From the IMG/VR virus record IMGVR_UViG_3300033145_000192, positions 96,001 through 160,000 of that record: DNA of 64,000 nucleotides; one strand, written 5' to 3'. The DNA comes from a virus. Under the pieces are notes generated by a model, which worked only from the letters and a program-made list of their open reading frames with translations, was not told where the DNA came from and ran no database searches. Of the stretch, positions 50,723 to 59,721 are shown piece after piece. The translations under genes and the position numbers were made by a program. Position 1 is the first letter of the stretch. The number at the start of each line of letters is the position of its first letter.

Positions 50723-51401
50723 CTAACGTAAGTCTTTGATATCACCTCTTAGAAACTTCTTGAGAGATGACTTCTTATTTGTTCTATGGTCTACAACCAG
50801 GTCTTTGCGCTCGCAATAGGTTCTAACTTTGTCCCCTCTTGCCCCTCTACCGACCTGGCTTTTCCTCTTGGCGTTCTTTTTATCTTTGTTGCGTCCCCGT
50901 TGGGCACTAAATAACTTAGCCCGCATGGCGTTCAGGGCCAACGCCTTATTGCGTCCCTGCCTGCGGCCATACTGGGCTATAACTACCATTCCTGTTGGGA
51001 TGTGGGTTAGTCGAACTGCACTGTCAGTTTTATTTTTATGCTGTCCACCAGGTCCGCTACCTCTAAAGAAAGTAAATCTGAGGTCTTGTGGTCTAAGTGC
51101 CACTTCAGTCTTTTGCTGGTGTTGTAAGACAGCAACGGTAATAGTGCTTGTATGAACTCTTCCCCTGCGCTCTGTAGGCGGGACTCTTTGGTATCTGTGG
51201 ACCCCTGCCTCGTGACTGAAAACTTCATTTGCTCTCCTTCCTCCTACTTCTAGGACGACATATGATGCGGCGCGGTCGAGCAATTCAATGCTAAAGATGC
51301 TCCTTAGCGGCGACCTTCCTGAATACGTTCTCGAACTTGACAACCAAGTCCTTGGCGTCTGCACCACCAGCGGCGGCGCGAATCTCAATCGTTACGTTCA
51401 T
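50723..51401 (-). CDS. Class I peptide chain release factor, RF1-like (PxT), lacking domain 1, translated through a programmed +1 frameshift (about 225 aa)
   Basis: RBS GAGGAG then ATG 51401 gives MNVTIEIRAAAGGADAKDL...KEHL-TAG (RF IRAGxGG motif). The +1 frame continues SIELLD...EAGVHRYQRVPPTERRGRVHTS...GSGPGGQHKNKTDSAVRLTHIPTG...DKVRTY...DHR. Confidence 0.92.
51290..51305 (-). promoter_or_regulatory. prfB-type +1 ribosomal frameshift cassette AAGGAG-CAT-CTT-TAG-C
   Basis: Internal SD, 3-nt spacer, CUU shift codon, stop and C: the same geometry as E. coli prfB AGGGGG-UAU-CUU-UGA-C. Confidence 0.88.
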
Positions 51402-53595: not shown

Positions 53596-53613
53596 CTGGC
53601 ACGGGACGTGCTA
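53596..53613 (+). promoter_or_regulatory. Sigma54-like -24/-12 element
   Basis: CTGGCACGGGACGTGCTA, GG-N10-GC. Confidence 0.6.
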
Positions 53614-53836
53614 TAGGTAGGGTGGCGGCGCGGGGTCGGGTGCGACCCAAAAGCGTCCCGCTCTTTGACAATTCGGCTCATTTGCGTGTCACGGTGGGGG
53701 GCCTTGCGCCTCATTTGTGACGCACGGACCACGTCGAGAGACGTATCTGGAACCGAGACCCGCCGGAGGCTGAGACGCTTCTGACACCTACGGGGGCGGC
53801 AGGAGGGACGCAAATGAGACGGCCTTGAAACGCAAC

Positions 53837-53898
53837 GGGTCGCCCTGAAGGCAGGGAGTCGCAAATGCGACGAATCCGGTTCGAATCCGGAACGACCC
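53837..53898 (+). ncRNA. tRNA-like cloverleaf with a canonical T-loop
   Basis: GGGTCG/CGACCC closing stem, CCCTG/CAGGG arm, GTCGC/GCGAC arm, TCCGG-TTCGAAT-CCGGA. Confidence 0.55.
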
Positions 53899-53958
53899 AT
53901 GACACGTTTCACCATGCGTCTCACAGAAAGGGACGCAAATGACACGAAGGAGGAGGAG

Positions 53959-54189
53959 ATGAAACGAATGCGGCCTGTCACTGAGACGATGGCACGCATC
54001 TGCGACGAATGTGACGGGTTGGGTTTCGTTCCGCGACACTCAACTGGAACGAAAGTGACACTGGTCGAGGCGCATACGGCACAGAAATGCGACGAATGCG
54101 ACGGCTTCGGGCTGGTGGCACGCAAGCGAGACGAATCCACCCTGACTGAGACGATTCTGCGACTCAAAACCCTCTACGAAACGAACTGA
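53959..54189 (+). CDS. Small protein with two CxxCxGxG (DnaJ-type Zn finger) motifs
   Basis: CDECDGLG and CDECDGFG; GGAGGAGGAG RBS. Confidence 0.65.
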   Translation: MKRMRPVTETMARICDECDGLGFVPRHSTGTKVTLVEAHTAQKCDECDGFGLVARKRDESTLTETILRLKTLYETN

Positions 54190-54198
54190 GAGACGGAA

Positions 54199-54708
54199 AT
54201 GACACGCTTCTGGACCATTGCCCACGACGATAAGGTTTCAAATGCGTCCCACGAACACCTAACCCTTGCGTTTCACGACGATGGGACGATTGCGGTTCGA
54301 ACCAAGACCGTCTCAGAAGGGGCTCATATGCGTGACACTTACGAGTCATGCGGCTCCTACGGTCGGTGGGATACGGGTCACCGTTGGGTCGAATTCGACT
54401 CAAGCTGCACCGCATTTGACATGGCTTCGGTTGCCATGCAACGCGAGTGGAACGTAACGGTTCTCAACTGCAACGCAAGTGACTCGGATTGGGGTCACAT
54501 CAGTTTCATCGAGTGCGACGGAAACGTCACCGACCCGGATACGTTGCGCGGCATGGGACGCAACAAAGACGCGGACGCCGATGAGACGAGTGCGACACGC
54601 AAGCGGAACGGAAACAGCCTCATGCGGTTCGGCGGGTGGAACGCAACGCGGGTCGTAAATGACAAGGCTCTGGCACGAGCCAAGGCTGCCGACGCGGCAC
54701 GCAACTGA
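54199..54708 (+). CDS. Hypothetical protein
   Basis: 169 aa, directly follows the previous ORF. Confidence 0.6.
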   Translation: MTRFWTIAHDDKVSNASHEHLTLAFHDDGTIAVRTKTVSEGAHMRDTYESCGSYGRWDTGHRWVEFDSSCTAFDMASVAMQREWNVTVLNCNASDSDWGHISFIECDGNVTDPDTLRGMGRNKDADADETSATRKRNGNSLMRFGGWNATRVVNDKALARAKAADAARN

Positions 54709-54750
54709 CACGAACGGTGCTCGGGGCGGGTTCGACTCCCGCCCGTGTCA
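54706..54750 (+). ncRNA. Acceptor/T-arm minihelix-like element
   Basis: TGACAC/GTGTCA stem stacked on GGGCGGG-TTCGACT-CCCGCCC. Confidence 0.6.
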
Positions 54751-54807
54751 TTTCGGTTTCACCATACGTGCCACCCAGAGGCACGCAAACAGAACGGAAG
54801 TTTCAAA

Positions 54808-55026
54808 ATGAAGAACATTCACGACCTGCGAGACGCATTCGACACGATTCAGGCTGCGGCACGAGACGGAAAACGAGCCTGCAACGGATTTGAGACGCTA
54901 GAGGCGTCCTGCGTGTTGGACCACGATATGCTGGCCAGCATACTCCTGAGCGTTGAGGAGCAGTTGCGTCTCATTGCGGACCACGCGAACCGGAGCCTGG
55001 GACAAACCGCTATCCGAATCGACTGA
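54808..55026 (+). CDS. Hypothetical protein
   Basis: 72 aa starting MKNIHDL. Confidence 0.55.
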   Translation: MKNIHDLRDAFDTIQAAARDGKRACNGFETLEASCVLDHDMLASILLSVEEQLRLIADHANRSLGQTAIRID

Positions 55027-55052
55027 CACGCATCTGAGACGGACGGCTTCTA

Positions 55053-55081
55053 GGGTCGTAGGGTTCGATTCCTTACGACTC
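55053..55081 (+). ncRNA. T-loop hairpin
   Basis: 11-bp stem GGGTCGTAGGG/CCTTACGACTC with a TTCGATT loop. Confidence 0.6.
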
Positions 55082-55136
55082 ACTTGCGGTTCACAATCCG
55101 TGAAACGCACAACTGCCTGGTGGCAAAGGATTTAGC

Positions 55137-55730
55137 ATGAACGTCAGAAAGAACGCGCTTCGTCTCATGGTCGTCCGCAACGCAACTGAGACGGAGTTCG
55201 CTGCCCAGTTCGCCTACCGCACCGCACCGCTCGGCTCGACGGGACGCAAATGGGACGCAATGATGGACGACGGCTGGTGGAGGGGCGACGGTAACGAGTG
55301 GGTCAAGGTCTACAAGGGTATCAGTGAAACGCATTTGAGCCCGGACGACTACAACTACCTCTCGTGGGACGAAATTGACTCGATTCTGCGACGAGAGACC
55401 ATTCGGTGCGTAAGCGTGTCAACGACTCGTCTGCGGCGTGTTCGGTCTCACTTGCGTATCACCGAGGCGTCGTCCTTCGGTGGCAACGTGGCCCGCAGGG
55501 TTCGGTGGCTCAAGGACATGCGGGACGAAGCGGAGCGAAACGCATTTGAGGCGAACGTCCTGCTCTGCTCCGATATGGACCAGTTGGCCGTAACTCCCGG
55601 CGACGAGTGGGATTACACCTACAACCCCGAGACCTACGGTTGGGACCACAGCGAGCCGTCCGGGTCATTTGCGTTCCAGAACCGTGCCAGCCACGAGTTG
55701 ACCTTCGACGACATGGACGACTGCTTCTAG
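55137..55730 (+). CDS. Hypothetical protein
   Basis: 197 aa, AAGGA RBS. Confidence 0.62.
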   Translation: MNVRKNALRLMVVRNATETEFAAQFAYRTAPLGSTGRKWDAMMDDGWWRGDGNEWVKVYKGISETHLSPDDYNYLSWDEIDSILRRETIRCVSVSTTRLRRVRSHLRITEASSFGGNVARRVRWLKDMRDEAERNAFEANVLLCSDMDQLAVTPGDEWDYTYNPETYGWDHSEPSGSFAFQNRASHELTFDDMDDCF

Positions 55731-55749
55731 CAGACACGCATTGGTGACG

Positions 55750-55778
55750 GAGGCGGTAGGTTCGATTCCTGCCGTCTC
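55750..55778 (+). ncRNA. T-loop hairpin
   Basis: 11-bp stem GAGGCGGTAGG/CCTGCCGTCTC with a TTCGATT loop. Confidence 0.6.
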
Positions 55779-55833
55779 ATTTGCGTCTCAATTATGGGAC
55801 GCTTAACGGCCTGGTGGCCAAGGTGACACGCAT

Positions 55834-56073
55834 ATGAGTATCTTCCTGAACGGCGAGGCGTATGAGCAGGACATGGCCGAGACTGTCGTTGAAACGCAAG
55901 TGGAACGATACACCGGCAACTGGGAAATGAAGGACGGCAGCCAGCCCGTTGGCATGGTGACCGGAATGAGACGGAAGGACAGTTTGTCCCGTTTGCGTCT
56001 CACCGACTCCCAGGCCAAGTTCTTCCTCAGCGACACTCACTGGGATATCTACTGGGAGGTGTTCACCGACTGA
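55834..56073 (+). CDS. Hypothetical protein
   Basis: 79 aa, AAGGTG RBS. Confidence 0.6.
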   Translation: MSIFLNGEAYEQDMAETVVETQVERYTGNWEMKDGSQPVGMVTGMRRKDSLSRLRLTDSQAKFFLSDTHWDIYWEVFTD

Positions 56074-56151
56074 TACGCATTTGAAACGAACCAACGTCGG
56101 TTTGTTTCAGAGGGATAGACGGTTCGATTCCGTTTGTCTCTTTTGCGTCTC
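56074..56151 (+). ncRNA. Three-way junction element with a T-loop hairpin
   Basis: ACGCA/TGCGT closing stem, TGAAACGAACC/GGTTTGTTTCA hairpin and AGGGATAGACGG-TTCGATT-CCGTTTGTCTCT hairpin. Confidence 0.6.
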
Positions 56152-56184
56152 ACAATGAGGCGCAGCAATGCCTGGAGGCACGCA

Positions 56185-56415
56185 ATGAACACGTATCTGC
56201 TCACGGTTTGGGACGGAAGCAACGCAAATGGGCTCGGCCAGACCTACAATCTGGGGCGCAGCAACGGGCTCTACACCCCGATTCAGCAGGCTGGAACGAT
56301 TCTGGCACAGTGGCACGCAAATGGCACGAACGAGTGGACGTGCAACGATAACGGGGCGTGGGAGAACCTGGAGACGGGCCACAAGGCGCAACTGAGCCGA
56401 GTGCTGGGCCGCTAA
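56185..56415 (+). CDS. Hypothetical protein
   Basis: 76 aa starting MNTYLL, GGAGG RBS. Confidence 0.62.
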   Translation: MNTYLLTVWDGSNANGLGQTYNLGRSNGLYTPIQQAGTILAQWHANGTNEWTCNDNGAWENLETGHKAQLSRVLGR

Positions 56416-56464
56416 ACGCAAGTGAGACGAATCAACTTCTAGCCTGAAACGCAAAGGAAACGAA

Positions 56465-56689
56465 ATGCTGAAAAGTGAACTGATAGAGGAAAACAAGCGG
56501 CTGCACGATACCGTCGATTACCTTCGGTCGCAGTTGCGTCTCATACCGCACAGTCGTTTCGAGAAGTATCGGCACGCAAAGGACACGAACGAGACTCTGG
56601 CCTACCGCAAGTGCGCCCAAGAGGTAGACTCGCGCTGCCTCGCCGCACTGAGCCACGCAACTGACATACAAGACGGTTGCACCGACTAG
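56465..56689 (+). CDS. Hypothetical coiled-coil protein
   Basis: 74 aa, AAAGGA RBS. Confidence 0.6.
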   Translation: MLKSELIEENKRLHDTVDYLRSQLRLIPHSRFEKYRHAKDTNETLAYRKCAQEVDSRCLAALSHATDIQDGCTD

Positions 56690-56708
56690 GCGACACGCAT
56701 TTGAGACG

Positions 56709-56734
56709 GACCTGAGCATGTCGTTAAACTGCTC
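56709..56734 (+). ncRNA. Compact H-type pseudoknot
   Basis: GACCTGAGCATGTCGTTAAACTGCTC: S1 GAC/GTC, S2 GAGCA/TGCTC. Confidence 0.45.
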
Positions 56735-57378
56735 GGTTTCTTTTGCGTCTCACAACTGGCCAGGCCAGGGGGCAGTCTGTCTATAATGAATCAGCGAACG
56801 ACACGCAAATGCAACGTATCTTCTCTAGCAGTTACGAATGACACGCAAATGCTACGAATGCTTTCGTTTCACCATACGTCTCACGAGAATCCGCCCGAGG
56901 TGTTCACGCATAAGGAGTAAATGACACGCAAATGAGACCCACTACATATGGTATGCTATTTGTTATGACACGCAAATGAAACGCTGTTGTTCCCTACGGG
57001 GAGATTGGCATGATTCCAACACAACTAAAGGAGTTACAAATGAGACGCAAATGCAACGAGCACCTGCGCCATTCTAATACACCCCCCATATGTAGTGGGT
57101 TGGCACGCAAGAGAGACGCAACGAGCCTATGAAACGCATTTGTGACATAAAATCAATTCGTTTCACTATACGTCTCACGGAAAGCCGCCCGAGGTGTCTG
57201 GGGAGAGGGAGGAAACGCAAATGAGACGAGAGCCGCAAATGAGACAAAAGCCTCCGCTGCGCTGCGTCATGCTTCTTTTCATTTCACCTTGCAACGCATT
57301 TGTGGAGCAAGGCTACCTAAAGGCTTTACAGCGTTTCACTTACGTCTCAGATGTTGCACCGTATGTGACACGAAGACT

Positions 57379-57396
57379 TTGGCACGGGATTTGCTT
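57379..57396 (+). promoter_or_regulatory. Sigma54-like -24/-12 element
   Basis: TTGGCACGGGATTTGCTT, near-perfect consensus. Confidence 0.6.
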
Positions 57397-57488
57397 AGGG
57401 GGCGGCTGGCGGCTGGCCGACGTAACTCTATACGCCACGTCTAAGCCATTGTGCCCACTAGCTTTATGAACTCAGTGGACCTTGGGGT

Positions 57489-57506
57489 CTGGCATGGCAT
57501 TCGCTT
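57489..57506 (+). promoter_or_regulatory. Sigma54-like -24/-12 element
   Basis: CTGGCATGGCATTCGCTT. Confidence 0.45.
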
Positions 57507-57635
57507 AGTGAGACGTATCTGACCCATGACACGCATAACTCCTTTGTTTTGGCAATGAGACGTATTGTGGTGTCCAGCCGGACACTGTAGCCAAATGGAC
57601 ACCACTGGAATCATTAGAGTTACGTCAAATACCCT

Positions 57636-57653
57636 CTGGCATGGGACGTGCTA
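57636..57653 (+). promoter_or_regulatory. Sigma54-like -24/-12 element
   Basis: CTGGCATGGGACGTGCTA, nearly identical to the 53596 copy. Confidence 0.58.
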
Positions 57654-57885
57654 TAGCTTCCCTGTCGGCCAACGGCAACACGGGAGGAAAGGTAAGGTAT
57701 CACGGGGGTTACGGGTGTCATTGTGATACCCTCCCATGATACTAACCCTAGACTCGCCAGCATATTCGGGAGGTAAGCCTAACCCCTATTCGCAGGAATC
57801 GTGTCAAAACGGTCCCGAGCGAGCCATAAATGAGACGGATTGTCGCCAAAAGGCTACAGCGTCCACGCAACGGGGGGAGTTAGGT

Positions 57886-57903
57886 TTGGCATTCGGCGTG
57901 CTA
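57886..57903 (+). promoter_or_regulatory. Sigma54-like -24/-12 element upstream of the large ncRNA candidate
   Basis: TTGGCATTCGGCGTGCTA. Confidence 0.55.
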
Positions 57904-57914
57904 CTGTGTTCCGT

Positions 57915-58800
57915 AACGCTAACTTGAGAGGGTAAAGCGAGCCACTATACCGCCCCATAAACGGGATTCCGACTGATAGCGGGATAATGATTCTATCAGG
58001 GTTTTATACTAACCGGCGTTAAAAGCGTTGGACGTATTGTGGACCTTAGCACGATACGTAGGGTTCCCCTGGCGGGGAATACAAAGGTTGTATGGTCTAC
58101 TGTGCAAGGTAGCTTAAGCCATACAACCGGGGGCGGTAAGCCGAGATACTGGCTTGCTCAATGTCGTAAGACTGCCCTGTAAAAGCGACGGCGCTTGCCC
58201 AAAGTATTTAGGCTTTAACCTATAAGGTTGCGGTAGGGGTTGGAATCAGGATACCCTGAGCGAGTAGACTAGGTTAGAGTTTCTGCCATGCGGGCGACAA
58301 GCCGATTGTTAAGCGGCTCGCGTGGATAGGTTGGCAAACCTATAACCCTGTTTTGGTGGGGTATATGGTGAGCTATGGCCGACTGTTGGGAGCGTGGCGC
58401 AAGCTACGCCAGTCGGTTATCTCGCTAGTCTGTGCAAGCGGACCTTGTATATCCTTTTAATGAACGGGGCCTAGCCCGAAACGTCCGTTTCCGTTAGCTA
58501 GACACGGTTTCGCCTCTATTCGCCTATATCCGTGAGTCGTTTAGACTCGTGGGCTACCTAACTTGGTAGGTTACAGGATACCGCAAGGTCTCCCCAATAC
58601 CGTAAACCCAGGGGCCTACAGGATAGCGGGCGATTGGCGATAACACGGTCCATAATGCGTTGATACCAAGGGACTCCAAACGGAGTTATTAAATCCCGTG
58701 AACGGTTTATGCCGGAAACAATGGCTTATTAGGGCAGGGTTCAAGGGGTCATATCCCCTGGCAGGGTTTTTGCCGCCACCATTCGGGAGGCGGCTTTTTT
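57915..58800 (+). ncRNA. Candidate large structured ncRNA (about 880 nt)
   Basis: No credible ORF. At least 15 stems with G-U pairs, several GNRA loops and nested multistem junctions, bounded by a promoter motif and a terminator. Confidence 0.68.
58772..58800 (+). terminator. Intrinsic terminator
   Basis: GCCGCC-ACC-ATTC-GGGA-GGCGGC followed by TTTTTT. Confidence 0.8.
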
Positions 58801-58814
58801 CGTGGGAGTGTATC

Positions 58815-59009
58815 GTGTTCAAGTTCTCGATTCGTTCGGCTCGCTCGGGTGGCGAGACCGAGGTATTCTCAATGGTCCCGTTCTGCGGGGTCAAGGTCGC
58901 CTTGGGCGGAAACGCCCCCAAGGCAAACTGCGTCCGAAACGGCGCGGGCTACGTCTACGTGGGACGGCGCAAGCGGTCGCAAATGCGCTCAGGCCGCACG
59001 CGGGTCTAA
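58815..59009 (+). CDS. Small basic hypothetical protein (64 aa)
   Basis: GGGAG RBS and GTG start (VFKFSIRSARSGG...RTRV), in the frame of track ORF 58698..59009. Confidence 0.55.
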   Translation: MFKFSIRSARSGGETEVFSMVPFCGVKVALGGNAPKANCVRNGAGYVYVGRRKRSQMRSGRTRV

Positions 59010-59034
59010 CTCCCTCGCATTGGTATTGGTCGCT

Positions 59035-59104
59035 ATGCCACTGGCCTAAAAGTAAGGCGCTCGCCGCAAAGGCGGGAGGTATGGGTGCAAATCCCATGTG
59101 GCGT
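59035..59104 (+). ncRNA. tRNA-shaped cloverleaf with non-canonical loops (nominal anticodon CAA)
   Basis: Stems 7/4/5/5 bp, 7-nt loops, 4-nt variable loop; U8, A14, G53-C61 and U54-A58 kept; no D-loop GG, no U33, no CCA. Confidence 0.65.
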
Positions 59105-59138
59105 TTTGTTCCGTTCGTTTCTTCTACTAGGAGTGATT

Positions 59139-59420
59139 GTGTTCAAGCCCGACGAGTCCAAGGCTGAGGAAAACTCGGCCATTCTCAGGACCGAGACCGT
59201 TCCCGGTATCGGTTCGGTTCTCGTGTTCACCGACAGCGCGGCGCGTGACGCATACGGCAAGTATGTGGAGCCCGAGGGTTTCGCGGACGAGGGTTCGTTC
59301 GAGGAAATTCTCTTCGACAAGCACGGGGAAATGGTGCTCACCTACCGCGACGACCCCCGTGGTATCGACGAGTATCTGGAGGAGCCCGCAATGGTGACTC
59401 GGTTCTGGGGTCGCAAGTAG
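59139..59420 (+). CDS. Hypothetical acidic protein
   Basis: AGGAG RBS and GTG start (VFKPDESK...). Confidence 0.6.
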   Translation: MFKPDESKAEENSAILRTETVPGIGSVLVFTDSAARDAYGKYVEPEGFADEGSFEEILFDKHGEMVLTYRDDPRGIDEYLEEPAMVTRFWGRK

Positions 59421-59460
59421 CGGGACCAATACTCCCGCAAACCTAGCCTGCTCGGGCTAT

Positions 59461-59545
59461 CCGCGATAACTGAGCGGCTGGGCTACGCTTTACGAGGGGA
59501 AGGGAATGATAGCTCCCTACTCGGGTTCGACTCCCGAGATTGCGG
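59461..59545 (+). ncRNA. tRNA-like cloverleaf
   Basis: CCGCGAT/ATTGCGG acceptor, AGCG/CGCT D-like arm with TGG, AGGGA/TCCCT arm, TCGGG-TTCGACT-CCCGA; followed by T5. Confidence 0.58.
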
Positions 59546-59648
59546 TTTTTCGGTTTGTTTCGTCTCACGTTGGGACGATTTTGAGACGGAGTGTAGCCCG
59601 CTGGAAACAGTCGGGCTTGCTTTGTTTCGGAAGCAAACGAGTTACGCT

Positions 59649-59666
59649 TTGGCACGTCGGGTGCTA
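59649..59666 (+). promoter_or_regulatory. Sigma54-like -24/-12 element
   Basis: TTGGCACGTCGGGTGCTA, about 55 nt upstream of ATG 59722. Confidence 0.6.
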
Positions 59667-59721
59667 TAGGTTGGTCGTCAAGTTCAACCGAATGTAGCAA
59701 GCACAAGGGAGGGAGGGGCAT

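Follow-up and report, generated by a model that had tools for sequence, protein, structure and literature searches.

A large structured non-coding RNA of ~888 nt is encoded on the + strand of a phage genome, at positions 57913-58800 of the 64,000-nucleotide stretch analysed here (the window), with a probability of about 0.93. It belongs to an apparently undescribed family of large structured phage RNAs, the candidates of the survey PMC10690425 standing outside the comparison. An earlier note made from the sequence had proposed a large RNA with its own promoter and terminator at this place, and covariation, asymmetry between the strands, conservation above that of the flanks and a promoter box kept in relatives bear this out. 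The features are listed in Table 1.

The window covers positions 96001-160000 of a complete 177,375-bp virus genome with direct terminal repeats, from an uncultured phage. The genome encodes a major capsid protein, terminase and portal, together with a class II ribonucleotide reductase and a release-factor-like protein (RF-1 and PCRF domain, window 50723-51388, - strand). The closest cultured phage by capsid has just 25% identity, and the closest record (95% capsid identity) stops at about window position 57372, immediately short of the RNA. The RNA lies ~6 kb past a switch of coding strand and GC skew near 52 kb. ARAGORN returned 45 tRNA calls and a tmRNA on the genome, nearly all distant from the RNA locus; the tmRNA and ~42-43 tRNA genes are found at genome positions 23699-49252, outside the window, in a cluster ~105 kb from the RNA.

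Directly upstream is a short-repeat array that reaches 24 copies in one 5-kb bin, where nearly every other bin has 0-3. Comparable CGCAAATG-type arrays precede the same slot in relatives L111, L202, L204 and L093. Array coordinates in relatives are L204:600-1900, L202:1650-2450, L093:10250-11000 and L220:300-980, the repeats of L220 being ACGGAAATG-like. The dense array is a possible origin, entry or protein-binding array. Downstream, 235 nt past the RNA, starts a tRNA-shaped element (Rfam tRNA model, 42.5 bits; ARAGORN, Leu(CAA)), the T-arm of which is preserved in L111, L113 and L177 while its anticodon loop differs. A second such shell occupies 59461-59545; in both the T-arm is kept and the anticodon loop is variable or missing. 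The strongest local fold of the scan (z = -7.4 in a 120-nt window) was seen at 59560-59679, around the next sigma54 box, and related sequence is present at L113:1814-1907. A related phage carries a Twister-P5 ribozyme at L091:9580-9640 (53 bits). The 236-aa and ~216-aa proteins encoded further downstream matched no Pfam or PHROG family.

Table 1. Features of the RNA locus and its surroundings (window coordinates)
Feature	Position	Strand	Remarks
Short CGCAAATG-type repeat array	53600..57400	.	Directly upstream of RNA; context
Second sigma54-type box (57637-57652) and conserved hairpin of ~80-100 nt	57637..57760	+	Separate element
Promoter-upstream DNA module	57800..57886	+	Possible activator site; outside RNA
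Sigma54-type -24/-12 box	57887..57902	+	GG...GC spacing exact; predicted +1 at ~57913
Large structured non-coding RNA gene, ~888 nt	57913..58800	+	Fold, covariation, conservation, homologues
5' conserved module, including helix H1 (57973-79/57993-99)	57946..57999	+	Conserved 13-nt loop; sequence kept in L113
Variable hairpins H3 and H4	58032..58079	+	Covariation in L111
Middle module	58322..58421	+	GGCA-capped hairpin with 3' AA bulge, AGCTATG linker, GNRA-capped rod H8/H9
Core module, ~45 nt	58665..58706	+	Outer stem, AA/GNGAA internal loop, GG-CC stem, hairpin, A-rich 3' bulge
Conserved 3' motif, CTGGCAGGG-like	58753..58770	+	50-61 nt past core
Intrinsic terminator hairpin and T run	58772..58800	+	Identical in L111
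tRNA-shaped element	59035..59105	+	Anticodon loop non-canonical, variable
Gene pair, 236 aa and ~216 aa	59722..61102	+	Marks RNA slot in relatives; context

The predicted fold of the RNA has an energy of -359 kcal/mol, compared with -308 +/- 8 for shuffled sequences (z = -6.14; none of 20 shuffles equalled it) and -296 for the - strand. All 17 of the arm pairs and hairpins listed in the earlier note were found in the sequence at 57915-58800. G-U pairs make up 44 of the 297 pairs of the + strand fold, and GNRA hairpins of at least 4 bp number three on the + strand versus none on the - strand (P = 0.03); together with loop swaps in a homologue, these agree with the earlier reading that such pairs and loops reflect selection at the RNA level. 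Local folding in the 3' half is weak, with z about 0 in 120-nt windows at 58540-58720. The stretch had been described as free of credible open reading frames, and this holds: the longest ATG-initiated ORF is 31 aa, no ORF is conserved, stop-free stretches reach 63 codons at most, and the alignment with a homologue of 90% identity carries frame-breaking indels of 1 nt and 19 nt. Longer than 500 nt, non-coding and with many covarying helices, the RNA has the general character of a large ornate phage non-coding RNA.

Homologous loci were reached via the 236-aa and 216-aa proteins. The closest homologue (L109-L111) has 90.3% identity over the RNA as against 74.8% over the next ORF, 74.6% over the tRNA-like element and 71.4% over the repeat array; the range for array, spacer, tRNA-like element and next ORF is 71-81%. 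The alignable sequences number four, and covariation was tested on a pair of sequences and not family-wide. The structure was predicted from the window alone (172 confident pairs), and the 66 substitutions separating it from L111 were re-dealt to obtain a null expectation. Among the changed pairs 19 were kept, 4 were broken and 7 had double changes, compared with 9.6, 14.8 and 0.39, respectively, under the null (permutation, P about 2e-4 or less). The frequent change types, C-G to U-G and A-U to G-U, would be mismatches on the opposite strand. Helix H3 is the clearest instance of variation with the structure retained, all 10 of its pairs being preserved in L111 with four double and three single changes. 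GNRA loops were also gained or swapped in L111, from TGGC to GAAA (in H4) and from GCAA to GAAA. Selection on the + strand fold is supported by these sequence comparisons. Folding against shuffles and covariation among homologues, both suggested as checks in the earlier note, thus came out in favour of the RNA.

Not every helix proposed earlier survived this comparison. The 3' arm of the long-range AGACTAG/CTAGTCT pairing is missing in L111, and the TCAGG/CCTGA stem is broken there, while both sides of the competing pairing 58236-39/58253-56 have changed. As described, a hairpin is present in the window at 58428-58443; L111 has lost it entirely, and so it appears dispensable.

Comparison of the sequences supports an organization in which the 5' module, middle module, core and 3' motif are fixed, whereas the hairpins between them are able to change, grow or be deleted. 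In L113 helix H1 has two double changes and one deleted pair, and L113 and L177 contribute double changes in H1, H8, the core and the terminator. In the middle module 94.6% of cells are paired and four pairs have double changes. Its hairpin with the AA bulge is tetraloop-receptor-like and may resemble the IC3 tetraloop receptor. A model of the middle module ranked L220:1862-1940 first and L093:12517-12628 second in 96 kb (E = 0.06 and 0.07). The core, with covarying stems, was found in the window, L111, L113, L177, L202, L093 and L220, which represent six lineages. A structural descriptor of the core, tuned on the very sequences it finds, gave a single additional match in 2 Mb of other loci, and 5.3 Mb of shuffled genome also produced one. 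With a core model trained on four close sequences, L202 being left out, the top match in 96 kb was in L202 (E = 6e-4); further matches lay within the RNAs of L093 (E = 0.5) and L220 (E = 1.2). The 3' motif recurs in L111, L113, L177 and L202, and in a similar form in L220; in L093 it was looked for and not found. The core lies 164-379 nt after the middle module. L220, which has the middle module, the core and the 3' motif, shares its module order with the window, L113 and L177. L093 departs from it: its middle-module match follows the core, and may reflect a rearrangement or a similarly shaped second module. A candidate long-range helix, 58284-88/58720-24, shows one double change in L113 and L177 by eye.

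Of the more distant members, L113 was recognized with E = 1.6e-11 (fold z = -3.35) and L177 in the 3' half with E = 2e-28. Loci with remoter relatives of the 216-aa gene leave 1-3 kb of this slot free of genes. In L202 a 940-nt fold (z = -6.9) is accompanied by a sigma54 box and a terminator; a 1-kb fold (z = -5.1) is present in L093 (in G008), and a weaker one (z = -2.2) in L220. None of the distant slot RNAs aligned over its whole length to the RNA of the window, and the very distant links consist of short modules with modest E-values from rough models (0.06-1.2 for L220 and L093). L204 holds a different ORF-free structured stretch of 1.3 kb (L204:2220-3515; z = -4.3; five GNRA hairpins), with a sigma54 box before it and a tRNA-Glu after it, in which no Rfam match and neither the core nor the middle module was found. 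Slot, promoter type and a downstream tRNA or tRNA-like element are common to the relatives, tRNA matches being present downstream in L177 and L093. The core was absent from the other 27 capsid relatives searched. Models of the modules (R1, R2) gave no further members in 23-28 related viral records; as they failed to detect even G008 in genome-scale searches, little weight attaches to these blanks. Viral, metagenome and genome collections scanned for exact motifs returned chance or coding matches only, besides the L093 locus. Motif matches in Verrucomicrobia and Acidobacteria were rejected as homologues, the cluster having the appearance of one shared coding sequence. The 216-aa protein used as query in viral contigs yielded no homologue locus. 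Judged from these comparisons, this is a real family with a patchy distribution, and its slot can be taken by another large RNA.

The sigma54-like box that had been noted at 57888 was located at 57887-57902, with GG and GC at the same spacing in L111, L113 and L202. The genome contains nine strict boxes of this type, eight on the + strand, where ~0.3 would be expected by the author's arithmetic, and five of the nine lie within window positions 53596-59649. Box positions include 53596, 57379, 57636, 57886 and 59649 in the window and 2172, 78050 and 160693 in the genome; some boxes have a common upstream module, and similar boxes are carried by the related phages L094, L202 and L204. The module upstream of the RNA promoter has 93.8% identity in L111, and copies resembling it stand ahead of protein genes in L113, L177 and L094 and are also present in two other places in L109. 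No sigma54 gene was found in the genome and no activator above the cut-off, so use of the boxes would need a host protein or an unrecognized phage protein. The element with the second box is a candidate small RNA or 5' extension of the large RNA; its hairpin element (57666-57760) is strongly conserved at L113:21-90, and the long hairpin is predicted alike in all three sequences compared. At the 3' end, the strong terminator proposed at 58772-58800 is confirmed as a hairpin with a T run, the stem of which covaries in L177 (7-bp version). It was missed by a simple scanner, probably owing to its bulged loop. The terminator is weak or absent in L113, and the L202 RNA ends in a different one.

At the Rfam gathering level no match was obtained in the RNA unit, only in the downstream tRNA-like element, and a 3-kb scan at E up to 10 added a weak PAGEV match and terminator-like noise only. 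The models of GOLLD, ROOL, OLE, HEARO, RNase P and introns, which had been named for comparison, were all without match; where the earlier note had left the choice between GOLLD, ROOL or OLE and a new class, the new class is favoured and the known families failed to match. With the RNA as BLAST query, cultured phages, plasmids and 29 viral records related by capsid yielded no match, and literature searches turned up no such RNA besides GOLLD, ROOL and OLE. Membership of PAGEV was rejected: the score of 17.3 bits compares with a gathering threshold of 61.1, the word is lost in L113 and there is no plasmid match. Database matches of the PAGEV-like word are coding DNA, and the match is due to chance.

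GOLLD and ROOL form protein-free cages via A-minor contacts and kissing loops, and are found in phages near tRNAs; GOLLD is conserved at its 3' end and variable at its 5' end, while raiA RNA is a monomer (PMC12286853), so that size by itself does not imply a cage. With neither sigma54 nor a recognizable activator encoded by the phage, host RpoN polymerase would transcribe the RNA described here within the phage's sigma54-box region. The docking sites, working via A-minor contacts, would be the unpaired A-rich loops and bulges in the core together with GNRA loops and the bulged helix that looks like a receptor, and docking would yield a compact and probably multimeric particle, as in GOLLD and ROOL; a contact joining multimers was not identified in the RNA. 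Most speculatively, together with the neighbouring tRNA shells it might act in infection as an abundant decoy or scaffold, tying up host RNA-sensing, nuclease or translation factors. A single folded molecule working as a GOLLD/ROOL-like scaffold, and belonging to neither family, is given about even odds, on the basis of the contact types proposed for it, the phage and tRNA setting and the conserved 3' versus variable 5' part. The decoy role specifically, directed at host defences that target RNA and the author's preferred function, is put forward tentatively. More doubtful as a whole is the widest formulation, a new giant phage RNA family (0.7-1 kb) with a few docking modules of changeable order and mostly a sigma54-type promoter, its slot filled by a different large RNA in other phages, forming a new RNA-only particle that counters host defence.

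Were the unit instead a cassette or precursor holding several small RNAs independent of one another, with processing as for the tRNA shells nearby, the variable spacers between middle module and core, the inverted position of the middle-module match in L093, and the tRNA-shaped element after and separate hairpin before the unit would be accounted for. A single promoter and a single terminator enclose the unit, however, identity to L111 is uniform at about 90% with poorly conserved spacers absent, module order is shared by the window, L113, L177 and L220, and the candidate long-range helix shows its double change in L113 and L177, which together make a cassette unlikely. Partnership in a ribonucleoprotein with a phage protein (e.g. 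the 236-aa or 216-aa product) or a host protein, as for OLE and HEARO, is judged rather improbable: the gene pair does lie 0.7-2 kb downstream of the RNA in most loci examined, but because the loci were found via those proteins the linkage is partly built in, and the genes have their own sigma54 box, no known family, and also adjoin the unrelated L204 RNA.

Large ribozymes typically have such a size, GNRA loops and a helix of the receptor-like kind, and a catalytic RNA, intron-derived or RNase P-like, processing phage tRNAs or tRNA shells would suit a genome with so many tRNA calls and a tmRNA. Its chances are small, given that the group I intron, group II intron and RNase P models had no match at E up to 10 in the RNA or its homologues, that the unit is intergenic with its own promoter and terminator and no flanking exon, and that very few nucleotides are invariant among distant members. 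Similarly slender is the case for a role with the repeat array in DNA replication, entry or packaging (primer RNA, R-loop or single-stranded DNA structure), despite the position just past a dense array and ~6 kb from the skew switch and the weak match to PAGEV, a plasmid-origin motif; the strong terminator speaks against priming, the GNRA loop swaps point to RNA, and the PAGEV-like word is absent from L113 and matches coding DNA in databases. A very distant member of GOLLD or ROOL missed by the models is highly improbable. Length and setting are similar and the GOLLD model spans only 416 positions, but GOLLD (RF02032) and ROOL (RF03087) remained without a match up to E = 10 in this genome, G008, the 3-kb scan or five homologous loci, the ROOL search having had no positive control that responded. 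The GOLLD/ROOL-like scaffold outside both families remains the preferred reading.

Few bacterial or phage RNA classes longer than 600 nt have been described, and for the phage ones, GOLLD and ROOL, cage structures are known and the function is not. An independent family with natural variants (deletion of a whole hairpin, loop swaps, a 45-nt core retained in very distant members) offers a comparative test of which parts are required, and cryo-EM has a ready target in the RNA. A second, little-described feature is the presence of a set of sigma54-type boxes in a phage without its own sigma54 or activator gene.

Among known systems, PAGEV (RF03037) shares one short word in a hairpin loop (17.3 bits, E = 0.24) and differs in being plasmid-borne and 185 positions long. 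OLE, raiA and HEARO are bacterial RNAs that are likewise large and structured, with a function that is unclear or linked to a protein; the present RNA differs from them by its lack of an Rfam match and by being encoded on a large phage genome, and a scan of the flanking proteins for the OLE and HEARO partners (OapA, IscB/HNH) gave no Pfam family. ROOL (RF03087; PMC5737381, PMC12286853) is, like this RNA, large, ornate and phage-associated with few invariant nucleotides, and some ROOL 5' ends hold a GGCAAAACCUA word resembling the middle hairpin; ROOL is ~580 nt long with six multistem junctions along with three pseudoknots, whereas the RNAs here are about 730-990 nt and too few for pseudoknots to be called. 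GOLLD (RF02032; PMC12286853) is an RNA-only 14-mer cage; this RNA differs in having no model match, other conserved motifs and a sigma54-type promoter, and in having a tRNA shell as neighbour, the phage tRNA cluster being ~105 kb off. The likeness to GOLLD lies in a length of ~800 nt or more (888 nt here), encoding by a phage, proximity to tRNA genes (here the tRNA-like element downstream), many helices and a best-conserved 3' part.
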